From an uncultured Gammaproteobacteria bacterium (GTDB lineage Bacteria > Pseudomonadota > Gammaproteobacteria > Pseudomonadales > Pseudohongiellaceae), in assembly GCA_913060975.1 (NCBI GenBank), contig CAJXVC010000013.1, forward strand, positions 1,536-65,535: 64,000 nucleotides of DNA, written 5' to 3'. Made by a program: the position numbers and the translations under genes. Position 1 is the first letter of the stretch, and each line of letters begins with the position of its first letter. This document shows positions 25,919-32,844 of the stretch, piece after piece. The notes under the pieces are model-generated. The model was not told the DNA's origin. It did no database searches and was given only the letters and a program-made list of their open reading frames with translations.

Positions 25919-26401
25919 ATGGCTAAATCTGCAAAAAAGAAAACACCGGATACTACTATTGTCGTCAACAAGAAGGCGCGACATGACTATTTTATCCAGG
26001 ACACTATTGAAGCCGGCGTGCAATTGCAGGGCTGGGAAGTCAAAGCCCTGCGCCTGAAAAAAGTGCAGCTGCTGGACAGCTATGTCCTGATCAAGAACGG
26101 CGAAGCCTACTTGCTGGGCTGCAACATCAACCCACTGGATACCGCCAGCACCCACGTCATTGCTGACCCCCAGCGTACACGCAAGCTACTGCTGCACAAA
26201 AGACAGCTGTCGCAACTGTTTGCCGCGACGCAGCAAAAAGGCGACACCTGCGTGTGCACCAAGCTGTACTGGAAAGACCACCTGGTGAAAGCCCAGATCG
26301 CGCTGGCCAAGGGTAAGCAAGCCCATGACAAGCGCGCGACTTTGAAAGAGCGCCAGTGGAATATCGACAAGCAGCGGGTTGTGCGAGAGCATAATAAGTA
26401 G
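25919..26401 (+). CDS. smpB: SsrA-binding protein
   Basis: 160 aa. [10 protein letters not shown]...[15 protein letters not shown]...LLLHKRQL is a canonical SmpB sequence. The tmRNA gene lies downstream. Confidence 0.95.
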
Positions 26402-26699: not shown

Positions 26700-27060
26700 G
26701 GGGGCGATTCGGATTCGACGCCGGTATCAACACCTGCGGTGCATGCCGAGAACGTAATGATTCTCGTAAATCCCTCATTACAACTTTATAGTTGCCAACG
26801 ACGACAACTACGCTCTAGCAGCCTAAAAGGCTTGCTAGCGATTGCCTCTTGGATGTCCGTAAACTTGAGTTTGCAATCGTCATATAGAACGGAATCGCCA
26901 GTGGAGCGCGCTTGACGCGAAGCGGCTAAAAAGTATCAAGCTCGCCCAAATCACCCTGCCCGTCGGGCGGATACGGGTTAACTCAATAGACGACGCTAAG
27001 CATGTAGAGCCAATGGCTGCGAACTGACGGACGGGAGTTCAACTCTCCCCGCCTCCACCA
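26700..27060 (+). ncRNA. ssrA: tmRNA (SsrA), tag peptide ANDDNYALAA
   Basis: 5' GGGGGCG pairs with 3' CGCCUCC-ACCA, including the G3:U identity pair. GGAUUCGACG motif near the 5' end. Tag reading frame GCC AAC GAC GAC AAC TAC GCT CTA GCA GCC TAA at 26794-26826. T-arm GGGAGTTCAACTCTCCC. Confidence 0.97.
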
Positions 27061-27073
27061 AATTAAAAAGGGC
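27036..27073. repeat. Left copy of the island-flanking direct repeat (tmRNA 3' end, att-like)
   Basis: AGTTCAACTCTCCCCGCCTCCAC(CA)AATTAAAAAGGGC recurs at 32104-32140 as AGTTCAATTCTCCCCAGCTCCACAAAATAAAAAAGGC. The first 23 nt are 20/23 identical. Confidence 0.75.
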
Positions 27074-27099
27074 TACCCTATCCGGGGTAGCCCTTTTTT
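27070..27099 (+). terminator. Rho-independent terminator after ssrA
   Basis: GGGCTACCC-loop-GGGGTAGCCC followed by TTTTTT. Confidence 0.8.
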
Positions 27100-27284
27100 A
27101 TTGGTCGATTGCGAGAGTTTCGAACTCTTTAAGTCGAGTTCGTGCGAATTGCCAGGAGCAATTGGCGACGCCGGCTTACGCTGGGCATCGTGATTTAGGA
27201 CCTCGCAAGCAATTTAGACTAATATATTAATTAATCCACGAGCATTATCGCTTTCTACAGCGATCCAAGCATCAGGCTATCCAT

Positions 27285-28799
27285 TCATTCTTGGTCTTGC
27301 GACTGGAGAATCTCAAATGGAACCCGTAAATATGCGTCTTTGAGTAATTTAACAGTATCAGATGACAAGCGATGTTTGCGAGTAGCCCTATCTTCCGCAA
27401 TTGCGTCATATATACAGTGGCGGAGGTAGTTTGTCACTGCATTCTCTCCATCTAACATCTGCCAGTGCGGATGTTGTAGATTAATTACAACCGAAACTTC
27501 ATCCTCAGGTTTACTATCTGTTACGAAGTAAGGGTCGTTGACGGAAACGTGAGAATCTAGATACACGTTTATTTCTATGTCTGCAATGGTTGCTTTAAAG
27601 CTGGGTTCATGTGTTTCAGCGCTCGCAACAACACTGTCATTGGCCTCCTCGATTGCTTCATCAGGAGGAATAACATCAATCAAAGTCAACTTGTCTATGA
27701 ATTCAGGACTAGAAAGCTCTTCTTCAAGTGTTCTTACGGCTATGTCGATCTGTGGCTGAGTTGGGCCGGTATCAATCCTCCCTCTCCTAGTCTTTCGTGC
27801 GGCATCAATATAAATAGATAGCTCATCTTTTAGTCCTTGCTCAACTGCTTCTTCTTCATCCAAATGCCAATTAATTTCATCTTTCGTATGTGAAACCTCA
27901 AAATCTTCCAAATTTACCTCACCCACAAGCCTCTGGTTGATCAGATCGTTGCGGCCGCCAGCACCGAATATCGTTTCAGGACGCCAGCTATCAGGCCATC
28001 CTTTTATCAAACGCTTCCTATGTAATATAGAAAACCCGGCCTTAGACCTACTGCCATTCCGAAGAACACCGACCCATCCTTCTACAACCTTAGTTCCGTT
28101 CTCTGTTTCAACTTCAAAGATAAAACTATCCCTATATCTAGTCCCATCCGGCCTTTCGACAAAATCTGAACCTTCAAACCCTGGCCATTCAAGGGTTTCC
28201 CCGTCATACTTTAACTGCATTAATCCATTGGCAATATCTATTCGATAGATACTAGAAAGGTATTGCTTCACTTTACCTATTGTTCTTCCAGCTAACGCCC
28301 GGTTATGCCCGCTTATCTCTAGTTGAGTGTAATGGCTACCAGGGTCTTCGTTCTCAATGTTAATCGGCATAGTTAGATCACCAGACGCCACGCGATCAAC
28401 GTCTATTTCTACAGTTAGCCTCTCATTTGAGCCAAGTTTTGAAGTTCTAATAACCCACTTATTCCCAATCCAACATGCAGCTGTTTTAAGACCCAGCCCA
28501 TATCTTGAACGACCAGAGATATCTTGAGGCGGCACTCCTACTTTTAGCGCTCTCGCCAAGTCATTTTGATCCATACCCATCGCATTATCAGAAATTCGTA
28601 GAAAATCTTCATCTCTAGTGATATTTACAGAAAACACTTCAGACTCTTTGTCTAGCGCATTATCTAATGCTGCTCTGTTGTCCATATAACTTTGCGTTGA
28701 GTTATCGACAAACTCAGCCATTGCATACCACCATTTATATGACAGCCTCCTATAGTTTGAAAAATTTTGATACCCGAATTCAATAGTGACATCAGCCAT
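27285..28799 (-). CDS. GHKL (Bergerat-fold) ATPase, MORC / HATPase_c_3-like
   Basis: 504 aa. N box AEFVDNSTQSY, G1 box ISDNAMGMD and G2 box SRYGLGLKTAACWIG. About 330 aa at the C-terminus has no motif I recognise. The start overlaps the upstream gene by 8 nt. Confidence 0.75.
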   Translation of the reverse strand: MADVTIEFGYQNFSNYRRLSYKWWYAMAEFVDNSTQSYMDNRAALDNALDKESEVFSVNITRDEDFLRISDNAMGMDQNDLARALKVGVPPQDISGRSRYGLGLKTAACWIGNKWVIRTSKLGSNERLTVEIDVDRVASGDLTMPINIENEDPGSHYTQLEISGHNRALAGRTIGKVKQYLSSIYRIDIANGLMQLKYDGETLEWPGFEGSDFVERPDGTRYRDSFIFEVETENGTKVVEGWVGVLRNGSRSKAGFSILHRKRLIKGWPDSWRPETIFGAGGRNDLINQRLVGEVNLEDFEVSHTKDEINWHLDEEEAVEQGLKDELSIYIDAARKTRRGRIDTGPTQPQIDIAVRTLEEELSSPEFIDKLTLIDVIPPDEAIEEANDSVVASAETHEPSFKATIADIEINVYLDSHVSVNDPYFVTDSKPEDEVSVVINLQHPHWQMLDGENAVTNYLRHCIYDAIAEDRATRKHRLSSDTVKLLKDAYLRVPFEILQSQDQE

Positions 28800-29607
28800 T
28801 TAAATTGCCCCTTCTTCTGTGTTCCCTTTTAATAATTCTTATATCAGTTATCGAGGTAACCTCTAACAAATACTGCTTACCTTCTTCTAAATTTGGATCA
28901 GGAGATAGAAAAAGCATGGCCTCTGATTCCGTACACAGAACTTTCAAACCGTGCATTGTCCCACCATAATTGGCTTGTAGACTTGCAGAGTGCATATCTC
29001 TCAGTATTGGTGGAGGAGTTTTACAATAAAGAGAATTCAAGGTTTGATGCTTGACCAGCTTTATGGATTCTGAAGCAGGTTTAACAGGATGGTACCCATC
29101 ATGAAGCACTATGCAGTCATCAAGCTCATTGAAATAAGCCTCCAATATAGCCATCTTTACACCTATAGATCTGAGTTCCTTATGCCAGTCCGATTGATAG
29201 ACTGATGATGAATCCACAACGACTAATACTATGGGCCTTTGATAGCGCACAAGTGAAAATAGGCTTTCATAACAGTCTAACTCTAGGCGGCTGTTCAAGT
29301 ACTGAGCGTGAATATCAGAGTATTCTCCTTCAACAAAGGTTGTAACTTGAGGAATAACGTGGGAATTGAGAGAATGATGTGCTAATTCCACTTCCACGAC
29401 AAACCAGCATGACAAATCTTTCGCAACTATAGCTAGATCTGGAATATTTCTCGTCCCATTTACACCTTGAATTTCTTTTTTAAATGGGAGCACATGAAAA
29501 TCTAGTAATTTTTTCCTAAACTCGGAGAGCACTACTGCCTCGTACTGAGCCTCGCTCGAGAAACTCTTAGGCAAATATACGCGGTCATTTTTTGAAATTT
29601 GTCTCAT
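28792..29607 (-). CDS. Hypothetical protein, possible PD-(D/E)xK-like nuclease (tentative)
   Basis: 271 aa with no family I recognise. IPDLAIVAKDLSCWFVVEVELAHH has the spacing of a PD...(D/E)x(K) restriction-endonuclease core, with Glu in the Lys position. Coupled to its neighbours by 4-nt and 8-nt overlaps. Confidence 0.35.
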   Translation of the reverse strand: MRQISKNDRVYLPKSFSSEAQYEAVVLSEFRKKLLDFHVLPFKKEIQGVNGTRNIPDLAIVAKDLSCWFVVEVELAHHSLNSHVIPQVTTFVEGEYSDIHAQYLNSRLELDCYESLFSLVRYQRPIVLVVVDSSSVYQSDWHKELRSIGVKMAILEAYFNELDDCIVLHDGYHPVKPASESIKLVKHQTLNSLYCKTPPPILRDMHSASLQANYGGTMHGLKVLCTESEAMLFLSPDPNLEEGKQYLLEVTSITDIRIIKREHRRRGNLNG

Positions 29608-30770
29608 TTAATAGCGGCGGCTTTCCAAGTTGTTTCTGCCACACCAATCAGCCCTGCTTCTTCTTCTCGAAGCTGCAACTCTCGGTCTTCCCCATAGTAA
29701 AGCGTGTAGACAGTGGCATAATTTTTTCCGTTAGCCGGCCTCAAGACTCTACCTAACCGTTGAATACGCTGACGAGTACTTGTAGTCGACTGGGCAACAA
29801 TCGCGACATTCGATTCAGGAACGTTTGTGCCCTCATCAAGCGCTCGACAAGTCACAAGAACATTAGATTCGCCGCGTCTGAACATTCTTAGATTGTCACG
29901 TCTGTGCGCGCTAGACATTCGAGAATGGTATGCCACGCTAGTCATACCCTGCGACTTCAACCCAGAACAAATAGAATGCAAGGATCCAACTCTCTCGTGA
30001 AAAATAATAATTCGCTGATCTCTATGAGCTATAGCTAATCGCACTGCCCAAGCAGTTCGTGAGGCATTAGCAAACGTTTTTGCACTACGAACTTGGCTTT
30101 TCTTAGTCTCATCGCTTTCGAGCGCAATCATTGACTTCCTAGATAAATTGCTTTTATAGAACACATCGTCCGTCACAGAAATATCAATATTGACCAGATC
30201 AAAATCTACGATGACCTTATCTCTGTGCGCATCTCTATACGAATACTCGAAAATGACATTACCTAGGCTAGGGACTAGATAACTGTCGAACCCATCATCA
30301 TTCTCCCTATATGGGGTAGCGGAGAGCCCAAGCGTTGCGCTATGTGTTCCTGCTAATGATCTTGAGTTTTCTTTGGTAGCCGATCTATGACATTCATCAA
30401 CTATCAGAAAAGTCTCTTCATCTGATGCCAACCATTCACCCAAGTTTCTAGCAGTGTTCATGACAGTTACATTTATCTTAGCAGGCTGATTTGCCTTGTC
30501 CTCTCCACTAAAACATGCAATTTCTTCTTGCTGAAATTCCATTGATTCAGCGATATCCAAAGCCCATTGATCCATTAAGGCGAGTGTAGGAACCACAATA
30601 TTTACTCGCCCATTGGGAAATTGCTTTAAAAATTCCTCAATGCAGAGATACGAAAAAATAGTTTTTCCCCCACCGGTGACAACATGGGCAATTCCCGATA
30701 GGTTCTCAGCCCATCTTGATAATGCTGCCTTTTGCCATTGCCTGGGTTCTAGCCCTTTTCTTAATCGCAT
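29604..30770 (-). CDS. Superfamily-2 DEAD/DEAH-box helicase core (type III restriction Res / XPB-like)
   Basis: 388 aa. Motifs: Q-like LEPRQWQ, I VVTGGGKT, Ia VVPTLALMDQW, II LIVDECHR, III LGLSATP, V LVTCRALDEGTNVP, VI QRIQRLGRVLR. No fused nuclease or methylase domain. Confidence 0.8.
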   Translation of the reverse strand: MRLRKGLEPRQWQKAALSRWAENLSGIAHVVTGGGKTIFSYLCIEEFLKQFPNGRVNIVVPTLALMDQWALDIAESMEFQQEEIACFSGEDKANQPAKINVTVMNTARNLGEWLASDEETFLIVDECHRSATKENSRSLAGTHSATLGLSATPYRENDDGFDSYLVPSLGNVIFEYSYRDAHRDKVIVDFDLVNIDISVTDDVFYKSNLSRKSMIALESDETKKSQVRSAKTFANASRTAWAVRLAIAHRDQRIIIFHERVGSLHSICSGLKSQGMTSVAYHSRMSSAHRRDNLRMFRRGESNVLVTCRALDEGTNVPESNVAIVAQSTTSTRQRIQRLGRVLRPANGKNYATVYTLYYGEDRELQLREEEAGLIGVAETTWKAAAIK

Positions 30771-30790
30771 AGCCTTATGGTCCTTTACTT

Positions 30791-31798
30791 CTAAAGCAAC
30801 CCATCAAAGCGAGCCTTGGAACCTTCGATGTAATCTTCATTGGCTTCTACACTAATCCAGAACCTGTTTAGCGATTCAGAAGAAGCGCCAGTGGTATTGC
30901 TACCACCAAAGGGATCTAAAACTATGTCATTCTCGTCGGTTAAGAAATTGATGAAGAACTCCGCGATCGCACGAGGCATTCTGGCTGGATGAGGAGTCAG
31001 TTTTTTCTTTTTACAATACTGTTGGTAACGGTCTCTAGACAAAGTATTTCCGTGAGTCAGTACACTACCAGAAATCGCTCCGCCATGATCAGCCAAGAAT
31101 GATGTACTACCTATGTCATGTTCAGATGCGCGCTTACCAGAATTATAGCTTCCCCGCGCTAAAAGCTTTTTCATAGAGTCGCTATATTCCGTAAGCACTT
31201 TCCGGTTATCTGCTTTTGGCTTCTCATTTGGAGACATCCACCAAATTTTTGTAAAACTATCCTTTACTCTAACCCTATCAATCGTTACCCACTGGGCAGG
31301 CGTCGGTAGCTTAGCGGGATTATTCCAAATAAATTCTTGGCATAAATGCAGATCGTTTCGATCCAAAAATTCCAGAAGAGATCGAATGGCGAGAGTTGAC
31401 ATTGTGGGCGAGCCCTTCTCCCAAGAATTGCCAACTTCAATTACTATTGATCCTTTGGGTCTCAAAAGCGATTTAAAAATAGGGCCAAATTTACAAAGCC
31501 ATTCGATATAGTCCTCGCCTTGCAAATTTCCATATTTCTTTTTTCGGTTTAGAGGAAATGGCGGAGATGTAAAAATGAGATCTATCTTTCCTTCAAATTT
31601 TCCAAAGTAGCTACTAGATAACACCTCTTCAGAACGACCGCATAACATAGCTCCCTTTTCTGTTCTATATGCTCTATTTGCACATGGTCTCCCTGAAAAA
31701 AGCAAATTTCGATTCCGTTCTTCCTTTTTCAATCTGTTCACCACCAATCTGAGTTCTCGCGTAGAACCTACGCTTTCCTTATCAAATGAAATTTCCAC
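30791..31798 (-). CDS. Beta-class DNA amino-methyltransferase (N4-cytosine or N6-adenine)
   Basis: 335 aa. Motif IV DLIFTSPPFPL lies near the N-terminus and motif I DIVLDPFGGSNTTG near the C-terminus (order IV then I = beta class). It is the first gene of the island operon. Confidence 0.8.
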   Translation of the reverse strand: MEISFDKESVGSTRELRLVVNRLKKEERNRNLLFSGRPCANRAYRTEKGAMLCGRSEEVLSSSYFGKFEGKIDLIFTSPPFPLNRKKKYGNLQGEDYIEWLCKFGPIFKSLLRPKGSIVIEVGNSWEKGSPTMSTLAIRSLLEFLDRNDLHLCQEFIWNNPAKLPTPAQWVTIDRVRVKDSFTKIWWMSPNEKPKADNRKVLTEYSDSMKKLLARGSYNSGKRASEHDIGSTSFLADHGGAISGSVLTHGNTLSRDRYQQYCKKKKLTPHPARMPRAIAEFFINFLTDENDIVLDPFGGSNTTGASSESLNRFWISVEANEDYIEGSKARFDGLL

Positions 31799-32103
31799 AA
31801 ATGAATTTCAATACCTTACTATAAAAATCGGCTAGAATTTCTTAGATGCAACATACTTCTCACCAACTTTTTTAAAACCCTGTCTGCAATCTATGGCCGT
31901 GTAGAATCTAGACATCCTAGTCTTACTATAGATTAAGAAGCCAAAGTAGGTATAACAGTATACTAGACAAGCTGTTATTTCCTTTCGAATCGCTATATTA
32001 GTGGTTTTCCTAAATGAGTAACATACCAAAATGACAGTATTTTCGTAGGCATATAGAAGCCGATACTCACCGCATATGCTTCTATATCAATAGGCTACAT
32101 ACA

Positions 32104-32140
32104 TAGTTCAATTCTCCCCAGCTCCACAAAATAAAAAAGG
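32104..32140. repeat. Right copy of the island-flanking direct repeat (displaced tmRNA 3'-end fragment)
   Basis: See 27036-27073. Directly followed by a terminator hairpin. Confidence 0.7.
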
Positions 32141-32166
32141 CACCTCAAAGAGGTGCCTTTTTTGGT
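32135..32166 (-). terminator. Rho-independent terminator downstream of the truncated methyltransferase copy
   Basis: AAAGGCACCTC-AAA-GAGGTGCCTTT with U-runs on both strands. A homologous hairpin lies at 36152-36178. Confidence 0.7.
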
Positions 32167-32221: not shown

Positions 32222-32728
32222 TTACTCCGGCTTACGAAACTTCAACACAAAGCGATCCGTATTGCCCTGCACACCACTGGTACCCACTTCCTGCGTCAGG
32301 TCGTCTTCAGGGTGGTAATGCATATCACTGAAATCCACAAACTCAAAGCCAACGGCTTCCATTTCCTTGATGACCAATACCGGATCAAGTCGTCGTCCGG
32401 TGGCTCGTGTTGTTGGCTGGTTGTGGCGTCGCGTGTGATCAACCGCGCCGTAGATGCCGCCAGGCTTTAGCGCGTCGAAGATAGCGACGCTCATATTCTC
32501 GCGGTCTTCAGCCGATGGGTTGTGGAGATTCCAGAAGGTGAGCACCAAGTCGAAATCGCTGTCATCGAATTCAAACTCGGGGATATTGCCGAGATTGACC
32601 GCATCGTTGATTGCCGATGTGCAATCCATGCCATCCATCGTCATGACATTGCTTTTGAAGCTGTCGCTTACCCCCACAGAAAAAACCAGTTCCCCACCAC
32701 TGCTACACAGCACCGGCGCAAGAAACTT
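32222..32728 (-). pseudogene. 5'-truncated duplicate of the secreted SAM-methyltransferase-like gene at 36239-36976
   Basis: Collinear with 36239-36745 at a constant 4017-nt offset, with about a dozen substitutions. Lacks the signal peptide and the first ~77 codons. The track ORF start (32776) lies in unrelated sequence. Confidence 0.75.
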
Positions 32729-32739
32729 AATCAGAGGGT

Positions 32740-32844
32740 GGGGACACCAATAAAATAGTAAGACAGCGCCAAGCATTGTAGTAAAGCCAACATCATGGAG
32801 TTTGTGGAGATGGAAGGTTAATTTACTATTTTATTGGTGTCCCC
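32740..32844. mobile_element. 105-bp element with perfect 22-bp terminal inverted repeats (MITE or IS-end remnant)
   Basis: GGGGACACCAATAAAATAGTAA at 32740-32761 is the exact reverse complement of 32823-32844. It lies 12 nt beyond the duplication breakpoint. No transposase ORF inside. Confidence 0.6.

Follow-up and report, generated by a model that had tools for sequence, protein, structure and literature searches.

A low-GC, four-gene cassette at positions 27285-31798 of a 64,000-nucleotide (nt) stretch of contig CAJXVC010000013.1, from an uncultured gammaproteobacterium of the Pseudohongiellaceae (the whole stretch is called the window below), is probably a methylation-protected restriction system, acquired horizontally and of a type that is widespread but uncharacterised. 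The cassette consists of four consecutive minus-strand open reading frames (ORFs) in the order methylase-helicase-gene 3-GHKL, which are listed here in the direction of transcription:

30791-31798, minus strand: gene 1, beta-class DNA amino-methyltransferase, 335 aa, GTG start
29604-30770, minus strand: gene 2, superfamily 2 (SF2) helicase/translocase core, 388 aa
28792-29607, minus strand: gene 3, predicted restriction endonuclease, 271 aa
27285-28799, minus strand: gene 4, GHKL ATPase, 504 aa

The first two genes are separated by a 20-nt gap, and the two following junctions overlap by 4 and 8 nt, so that the operon is tightly coupled. The coding sequence is self-contained and amounts to 4.5 kb. 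The guanine-plus-cytosine (GC) content is 0.39-0.45 over 27-32 kb and reaches about 0.49-0.60 on both sides. An earlier note on this DNA had described the same strand, junctions and low GC, which the ORF list and the GC scan reproduce exactly, and the motifs that it quoted for the four genes are all present in the translations. Since the Pfam matches are strong and 70 of the 75 untruncated related loci share the gene set, the observation lies far beyond chance, and a real, conserved and mobile system resembling restriction-modification (R-M) is supported; we infer its defence function and the logic of protection by methylation.

Distribution, composition and co-evolution

A genome scan with the GHKL alignment, in which each species was represented by one genome, identifies 267 species genomes from many phyla that encode a GHKL relative. 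The best 80 of these 267 belong to the Gammaproteobacteria, Acidobacteriota, Chloroflexota, Bacteroidota, Actinomycetota, Cyanobacteria, Verrucomicrobiota and others, and include one archaeon. All locus counts given here refer to these best 80 of the 267 loci, whose ORFs were all scored with profiles of, or queries from, the four proteins, and of which 75 are non-redundant and untruncated.

All four genes are found in 52 of the 75 loci, mostly in the order methylase-helicase-gene 3-GHKL, and a separate clade has the permuted orders GHKL-methylase-helicase-gene 3 or methylase-GHKL-helicase-gene 3. A further 18 loci have methylase, gene 3 and GHKL genes, and no helicase is detectable anywhere in these loci, even at E <= 10. 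The families thus co-occur across phyla, as had been anticipated, the set being present with or without the helicase in 70 of the 75 (52 and 18, respectively). Because these 18 loci retain everything except the helicase, the methylase, gene 3 and the GHKL gene represent the core of the system, and the helicase is an accessory. The earlier proposal of a module driven by two different NTPase motors consequently holds in part: both ATPases are present in the window, but about one locus in four does without the helicase, which is not obligatory. When the GHKL proteins are arranged in a neighbour-joining tree, the loci without a helicase fall into several deep clades and also appear as sporadic cases inside the four-gene clade, a topology from which it follows that the helicase has been gained or lost repeatedly. 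The methylase gene is adjacent in 71 of the 75 untruncated loci, and in 64 of these 71 it is M.PvuII-like.

Gene 3, the helicase and the GHKL protein correlate with one another in pairwise identity (Spearman 0.67-0.84), whereas the methylase is decoupled from these three (Spearman 0.13-0.28). This pattern fits a physical restriction complex accompanied by a stand-alone, type II-like methylase. The methylase is also the most conserved component, its presumed target-recognition region (residues 151-262, by our own delimitation) being the part with the highest conservation (62% mean identity), and its specificity may be similar throughout the family. At the other extreme, conservation within the system is lowest in the C-terminal, B3-like domain of gene 3 (described below), with 26% mean identity.

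Some individual loci present distinctive compositions. In a Komarekiella atlantica metagenome-assembled genome (locus L029, 3773-8524), the GHKL homologue is accompanied by a C5 cytosine methylase, a 361-aa protein and a protein with an FGE-sulfatase domain, with a second FGE-sulfatase protein upstream and with neither gene 3 nor helicase, so that the GHKL module appears to have been re-used with other effectors. Five helicase-less loci from Flavobacteriia (L054, L056, L057, L062 and L066) encode a different N6_N4 methylase of about 415 aa with another motif order, in which the end of the Pfam model matches near the protein N-terminus; in one of them (L062), a 751-aa protein with no Pfam hit is encoded upstream of the cassette. 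A Transposase_mut (IS256-like) gene lies between gene 3 and the GHKL gene at 6683-7891 of L003/L007, where the system is probably disrupted. Finally, L058 (1140-8515) carries a GHKL-methylase-helicase-gene 3 array and then a gene 3-GHKL pair side by side, which suggests tandem acquisition or recombination between subtypes.

Gene 3, a predicted restriction endonuclease

Gene 3 had been described as an orphan whose PD-x14-EVE motif (P56 D57 ... E72 V73 E74) has the spacing of an endonuclease core. Its orphan status stands as far as named families are concerned, since nothing is found in Pfam, NCBIfam or PHROGs, and the PADLOC match is marginal and corresponds to no PADLOC family. It does not stand with regard to relatives: an exhaustive profile search recovers 936 cluster representatives at E <= 1e-3, of which 206 are at <= 1e-30, nearly all of them about 260 aa long. 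The near-orphan status suggested by a word-indexed search, which returned five relatives, was discarded as an artefact of sensitivity. Compared with PDB sequences, the gene 3 profile yields nothing significant; an oxidase unrelated to it gives the best E-value, 0.16.

An alignment of 69 sequences shows ten invariant residues, namely E19, D57, W68, E72, E74, H78, H83, Q87, P125 and W141, and E19, D57, E72 and E74 are kept in at least 68 of 71 homologues. The AlphaFold2 (AF2) model of the protein (predicted local distance difference test score, pLDDT, 95.5; predicted template modelling score, pTM, 0.81) has two domains. Residues 1 to about 175 follow the alpha-beta-beta-beta-alpha-beta order of PD-(D/E)xK nucleases, in which the first helix bears E19, strand 2 opens with D57 and strand 3 carries E72-x-E74. 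Foldseek matches of this half in the PDB are the R2 RLE nuclease, VC1899, Can2, EndoMS/NucS, XisH, Bax1 and MGME1, and those of gene 3 in a library of viral models are mostly PD-(D/E)xK nucleases. The suspected endonuclease core is thus borne out at the level of the predicted fold. The second domain, at about 178-262, is modelled as an all-beta, B3-like beta-pseudobarrel, and its Foldseek matches include the DNA-binding domain of BfiI, the plant B3 domains of At1g16640 and VRN1 (probability 0.99), the N-domain of LlaJI.R1 and ARF.

Gene 3 is therefore predicted, from its model, to join a nuclease domain to a B3-like domain, which is a restriction-endonuclease architecture, and it probably reads its target site itself by means of the B3-like domain. 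EcoRII and BfiI are enzymes that combine a nuclease with a B3-like domain. The union of a nuclease and a B3-like reader is a recognised restriction design that has also been documented for NgoAVII and CglI (PMC4267653, PMC4267654, PMC5861437).

Gene 4, a MORC-like GHKL ATPase

The translation of gene 4 contains the motifs EFVDNS, DNAMGMD and SRYGLGLKTA, matches Pfam HATPase_c_3 at 4.3e-14 and has an S5/transducer module behind the ATPase domain. At least 1,759 full-length homologues exist, and residues E29, N33, D71, G75, G101, G103 and K306 are kept in at least 79 of 80 of those aligned. The AF2 model (pLDDT 77) finds its best Foldseek matches in the ATPase modules of MORC2/3/4 and SMCHD1 (E about 1e-14, TM (target) 0.50-0.56, root-mean-square deviation 5.5-7 Å), with similar E-values against Hsp90/TRAP1. 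At the level of sequence the comparison with human MORC2 is insignificant (E 0.57), the fold alone being similar. Describing the protein, which the earlier note had called MORC-like from its motifs, as having a MORC-like fold is justified on the basis of the model. Behind the ATPase and S5 modules it has an additional C-terminal domain, at about 392-490, which could be assigned to no known family.

Genes 1 and 2, methylase and helicase

In the methylase, FTSPPF precedes DPFGGSNTTG, which is the motif order of the beta class, and SPP(F/Y) is kept in 62 of 62 aligned homologues. The protein matches Pfam N6_N4_Mtase at 2.6e-35 and PADLOC MTase_II at 1.9e-85, the match to MTase_III being far weaker (5.2e-10). 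Its best solved relative is M.PvuII (1boo_A), with E 3.5e-72 and 44% identity over 285 aligned residues. Homology accordingly supports its assignment to the N4-cytosine type, which had been suggested from the SPPF motif, within the M.PvuII family, and it is presumed to be the self-protection enzyme. Public gene calls place its start at the internal ATG 31648 (285 aa), but the M.PvuII alignment begins at residue 42 of the 335-aa ORF, nine residues upstream of this ATG. As the homology extends beyond it, the true start is probably upstream, either GTG 31798 or another upstream codon. The hexamer CAGCTG occurs 19 times in the window against 26 ± 5 expected, a count that does not inform on avoidance.

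The helicase carries the motifs TGGGKT, DECH, SAT and QRLGRVLR, and its Walker A, DExH, SAT and motif VI are kept in at least 52 of 53 homologues. Its Pfam matches are confined to ResIII/DEAD, SWI2_SNF2, Helicase_C and ERCC3_RAD25_C (ResIII at 2.9e-21 and Helicase_C at 7.6e-18), and 388 aa leave no room for extra domains. The closest structures in the PDB are archaeal XPB/Rad25 proteins, such as Archaeoglobus fulgidus XPB (2fwr, 4.3e-26). Gene 2 thus encodes a bare SF2 core, XPB/Rad25-like (ResIII), to which no nuclease is fused, in agreement with its first description. Its best match in a defence catalogue is PADLOC PbeA (2.9e-59), limited to the core of PbeA (249-629 of 672), and NCBIfam dnd_restrict_1 (TIGR04095) gives 143 bits against a cut-off of 600.

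The cassette as a tmRNA-associated island

The cassette is an island associated with the gene for transfer-messenger RNA (tmRNA). The following features delimit it:

25919-26401: smpB, just upstream of ssrA (ORF list and Pfam SmpB)
26700-27060, plus strand: tmRNA gene ssrA (ARAGORN, tag ANDDNYALAA), the insertion site and one island boundary
27036-27100, plus strand: ssrA 3' end and hairpin terminator, with the proximal att-like direct repeat copy AGTTCAACTCTCCCCGCCTCCACCAAATTAAAAAGG (sequence read and alignment)
31799-32104, minus strand: AT-rich non-coding leader, presumed promoter region of the operon (GC 0.39 for 31-32 kb)
32105-32163, plus strand: distal degenerate copy of the ssrA 3' end, AGTTCAATTCTCCCCAGCTCCACAAAATAAAAAAGG, and hairpin terminator, the far island boundary

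The proximal and distal copies of the ssrA 3' end are identical at 31 of 36 aligned positions, and each has its own hairpin, the terminator-like one behind the distal copy lying at 32133-32163. Between the copies, the low-GC segment of about 5.1 kb holds nothing but the four genes and the AT-rich leader, and neither the ORF list nor the domain search reveals an integrase gene inside the island. The sole ORF in the leader encodes 65 aa of low complexity, and a sigma-70 scan of the same region gave no convincing site; by its position, the leader would be the promoter region of the operon. Just outside the island, a minus-strand ORF of 184 aa (32222-32776) has normal GC and no Pfam hit.

Proteins identical to those of the window are encoded on 19 public metagenome contigs, and the cassette adjoins smpB in every context shown. 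Homologous cassettes are located between halogenase and MFS transporter genes (L002), next to recombinase genes and interrupted by an insertion sequence (L003), or between transporter genes (L004). Since these positions in other genomes are unrelated, the cassette moves as a unit. Searches for it found no match in phage genomes, two distant matches in plasmids and nine matches, one of them full length, among 2.9 million viral contigs; it is carried mainly on chromosomal islands.

Comparison with known systems

Judged from its sequence, the cassette resembles ATP-dependent R-M systems, yet it differs from each named system in at least one defining component, and neither PADLOC nor NCBIfam gives a full-length match of the set to a characterised system, as the earlier note had expected. 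It is nevertheless of a kind foreseen by comparative genomics, although its composition is distinct. Iyer et al. (2008; PMC2292703) predicted R-M-like operons of MORC and paraMORC ATPases, as the earlier note had correctly stated, and saw in these ATPases the source of the eukaryotic MORC chromatin ATPases. The predicted operons, like the cassette, combine a GHKL plus S5 ATPase with a Rad25-like SF2 helicase, a protein of the restriction-endonuclease fold and a DNA methylase, and are laterally mobile. The cassette agrees with their general definition, having a GHKL and S5 protein with intact ATP-binding motifs in a conserved neighbourhood. The paper offers a prediction and no mechanism; the Rad25-type operons that it describes usually fuse the nuclease to the helicase, whereas in the cassette the nuclease is separate and has a B3-like domain, and their methylases are mostly of cytosine types, with adenine types rare, the methylase of the cassette being PvuII-like and predicted to form N4-methylcytosine (m4C). 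MORC, GHKL and MutL are unmentioned in a 2025 review of R-M systems, and neither gene 3 nor this GHKL protein is represented by a model in PADLOC v2.

Among characterised systems, the ATP-dependent restriction enzymes CglI and NgoAVII (R2H2) share several features with the cassette. Their R proteins have a nuclease of the phospholipase D (PLD) family joined to a B3-like domain; in gene 3, the B3-like domain is supported by the model, but the predicted nuclease is PD-(D/E)xK and not PLD. Both systems have, like the cassette, a methylase, a site-specific nuclease/B3-like R protein and a separate SF2 helicase-like ATPase, which in their case is needed for cleavage, and the CglI site is GCCGC (PMC4267653, PMC4267654, PMC5861437). 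They have no GHKL ATPase, whereas in the cassette this protein belongs to the core and the helicase is optional. With the type II system PvuII, the cassette shares a matching methylase, but it has no homologue of R.PvuII or of the C.PvuII controller, and it is predicted to depend on one or two ATPases for restriction. A ResIII-type helicase and a beta-class amino-methyltransferase also occur together in type III systems of the EcoP15I kind, and dependence on ATP is to be expected in both cases. In type III, however, Res fuses helicase and nuclease and Mod provides the specificity, while in the cassette the nuclease is separate with its own DNA-binding domain, the methylase is of a type II-like m4C kind and a GHKL ATPase is added.

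GHKL ATPases are also found in two systems with nucleases. In VcSduA (GHKL-Shedu, paraMORC3), which has a PD-(D/E)xK nuclease, the ATPase and nuclease sites are both needed for defence (PMC12137116), and Mza, whose GHKL component is MzaB (NCBIfam NF041932), has validated nuclease-based anti-phage activity. The GHKL protein of the cassette scores 19.7 bits against MzaB, where the cut-off is 850 (PADLOC E 0.0015), with no other Mza hits, and neither Pfam nor PADLOC reports DUF4263 or SduA in the products of genes 3 and 4. Mza and VcSduA have no paired methylase, and the nuclease of the cassette is separate and bears a B3-like domain. Several other systems were considered and set aside after PADLOC searches. 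The matches to BREX and DISARM are weak, generic matches of the helicase core to BrxH and DrmD (E 1e-5 to 1e-7) with no other components such as PglX, PglZ and BrxC or DrmA, DrmB, DrmC and DrmMI/II, that to HmaA of Hma is 4.4e-6 and equally generic, and Dpd, Hachiman, type I and type IV systems show generic SF2-core similarity only. Ambrosia differs from the cassette in composition.

Proposed mechanism

In the proposed mechanism, the M.PvuII-like enzyme would N4-methylate cytosine at a short specific site in the host DNA, possibly a CAGCTG-like one. Gene 3 would act as the restriction subunit, its B3-like domain reading the unmethylated site and its PD-(D/E)xK domain (E19/D57/E72/E74) cutting or nicking the DNA. 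The MORC/MutL-like GHKL ATPase would dimerise on ATP binding to form a DNA clamp that licenses the nuclease, for which parallels may be seen in the activation of the methylation-sensitive MutH by MutL, in the control of the VcSduA nuclease by its fused GHKL domain and in Mza with MzaB. Where it is present, the XPB-like SF2 motor would provide translocation or unwinding for long-range communication between sites or for the processing of cut DNA, as in CglI/NgoAVII and type III systems, with XPB-Bax1 as a further model for its role. This division of labour would confer activity against phages or plasmids. A more specific proposal is that the family constitutes a distinct and widespread restriction class in which the obligatory engine is the GHKL clamp and not a helicase or an AAA+ motor, the clamp licensing a B3-like plus PD-ExE endonuclease on DNA lacking m4C, with the XPB-like motor as a plug-in; it is put forward tentatively, at somewhat short of an even chance.

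Several points weigh against a restriction system of this kind. The third catalytic position of gene 3 is Glu, where PD-(D/E)xK nucleases usually have Lys. BamHI is an example of an active Asp/Glu/Glu site. The Foldseek E-values of gene 3 are modest (best 3.9e-3 in the PDB and 2.1e-4 among viral models) and the TM scores low, because each match spans a single domain; the two sets of fold matches nonetheless appear coherent. The island contains no ORF for a controller (C) protein or other helix-turn-helix protein and no other obvious timing device for safe establishment, and the co-variation sought between the target-recognition region of the methylase and the B3-like domain gave no specific signal. 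One locus (L001, 2-6950) is the only untruncated relative with helicase, gene 3 and GHKL genes and no methylase; upstream of it are an integrase fragment and genes for 669-aa and 135-aa proteins with no Pfam or PADLOC hits, which could be an alternative modification module. A full-text search of open-access papers and preprints found no experimental methylation, cleavage or phage restriction for any member of the family. Additionally, PbeABCD, whose helicase core comes closest to that of the cassette, stops viruses from replicating without cutting DNA (PMC6459918).

Alternative explanations

This last system is the starting point for an unlikely alternative, according to which gene 3 and the GHKL protein, with or without the helicase, would exclude unmethylated DNA by blocking its replication or compacting it, the PD-ExE site serving only for binding or nicking. 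MORC ATPases are known to compact or clamp DNA, and the GHKL fold is nearest to MORC2/3/4, including a DNA-bound structure of MORC2. The Glu that replaces the canonical Lys in gene 3 also suits this explanation, as does the closeness of the helicase core to PbeA. PbeABCD, which acts in phosphorothioate-dependent exclusion, is likewise a four-gene restriction module paired with DNA modification. However, E19, D57, E72 and E74 are nearly invariant, as expected of an active metal-dependent nuclease. In addition, the N-terminal part of PbeA, of about 250 aa, is absent from the cassette, PADLOC finds no match to PbeB, PbeC (SMC-like) or PbeD, and the island has no dnd genes (Pbe usually adjoins dndCDEA), modification being assigned to the methylase. 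The sole link to Pbe is the helicase, and a quarter of the loci do without it.

A restriction system could also have its nuclease elsewhere, in a C-terminal domain of the GHKL protein as in MutL and paraMORC3, with gene 3 acting mainly as an adaptor that senses sequence or methylation; this is quite unlikely. The extra domain of the GHKL protein, at about 392 to 490, is made of a beta-sheet plus helices, in which N440, H443 and D465, all polar, are invariant and E469 is kept in 75 of 80 homologues, and other GHKL families bear C-terminal nucleases. Iyer et al. (PMC2292703) proposed that the HxH C-terminal extension of paraMORC5 could be a new nuclease site, and the H443-P-H445 of the window protein and its close homologues recalls it. 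Nevertheless, only 49 of 80 homologues have His at position 445 and 48 of 80 keep H461, so that neither is conserved across the family. A sub-alignment of the domain finds no counterpart among Pfam families or PDB sequences, and the whole-chain Foldseek search is dominated by the GHKL module. A role in dimerisation or partner binding is equally plausible for this domain, and gene 3 already has what the model presents as a well-formed, conserved nuclease site.

Very unlikely is a role outside defence, either as a mobile module for methyl-directed repair or maintenance, analogous to MutH-MutL-UvrD-Dam without MutS and directed, for example, at deamination or other damage in m4C sites, or as a selfish addiction cassette. 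The component-for-component analogy with MutL, MutH, UvrD and Dam is drawn by Iyer et al., who also suggest that such systems have occasionally been recruited to repair (PMC2292703). As a functional analogy it extends to the GHKL clamp ATPase, the methylation-sensitive PD-(D/E)xK endonuclease, the helicase and the methylase (PMC2292703). In contrast, the cassette has no MutS-like mismatch sensor linked to it, its helicase is SF2 and not SF1, its methylase is predicted to produce m4C and not N6-methyladenine, and it resides in a mobile island and not in the core genome. Its patchy spread across phyla, atypical GC, ssrA island and variable location fit mobile defence or selfish R-M and not a housekeeping function in repair, and an addiction cassette is compatible with the R-M mechanism and not an alternative to it.

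Finally, a modification-dependent, type IV-like complex that attacks foreign-modified DNA while the methylase has another role, as proposed for Ambrosia, which pairs a methylase with a modification-dependent nuclease, agrees with the methylase-free locus and with the independent evolution of the methylase, but is highly improbable, given that the methylase is adjacent in nearly all loci and mostly M.PvuII-like, a signature of self-protection, and that the B3-like domains of characterised restriction enzymes (EcoRII, BfiI and NgoAVII) read unmodified specific sites.

Significance for the family

If the cassette is the restriction system proposed here, it would provide a compact and tractable prokaryotic model of how MORC-type ATPases couple the methylation status of DNA to action on DNA, a coupling that would correspond to the ancestral activity proposed for eukaryotic MORCs. 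No methylase-linked MORC or paraMORC operon has been tested experimentally in the open-access papers and preprints searched. The existence of natural three-gene and four-gene versions makes the family practical for studying the clamp role of the GHKL protein, the licensing of the nuclease and the reason for the XPB-like motor. Gene 3 could represent a new sequence-specific, ATP-regulated endonuclease, and the cassette would add a missing family to the catalogues of defence systems.

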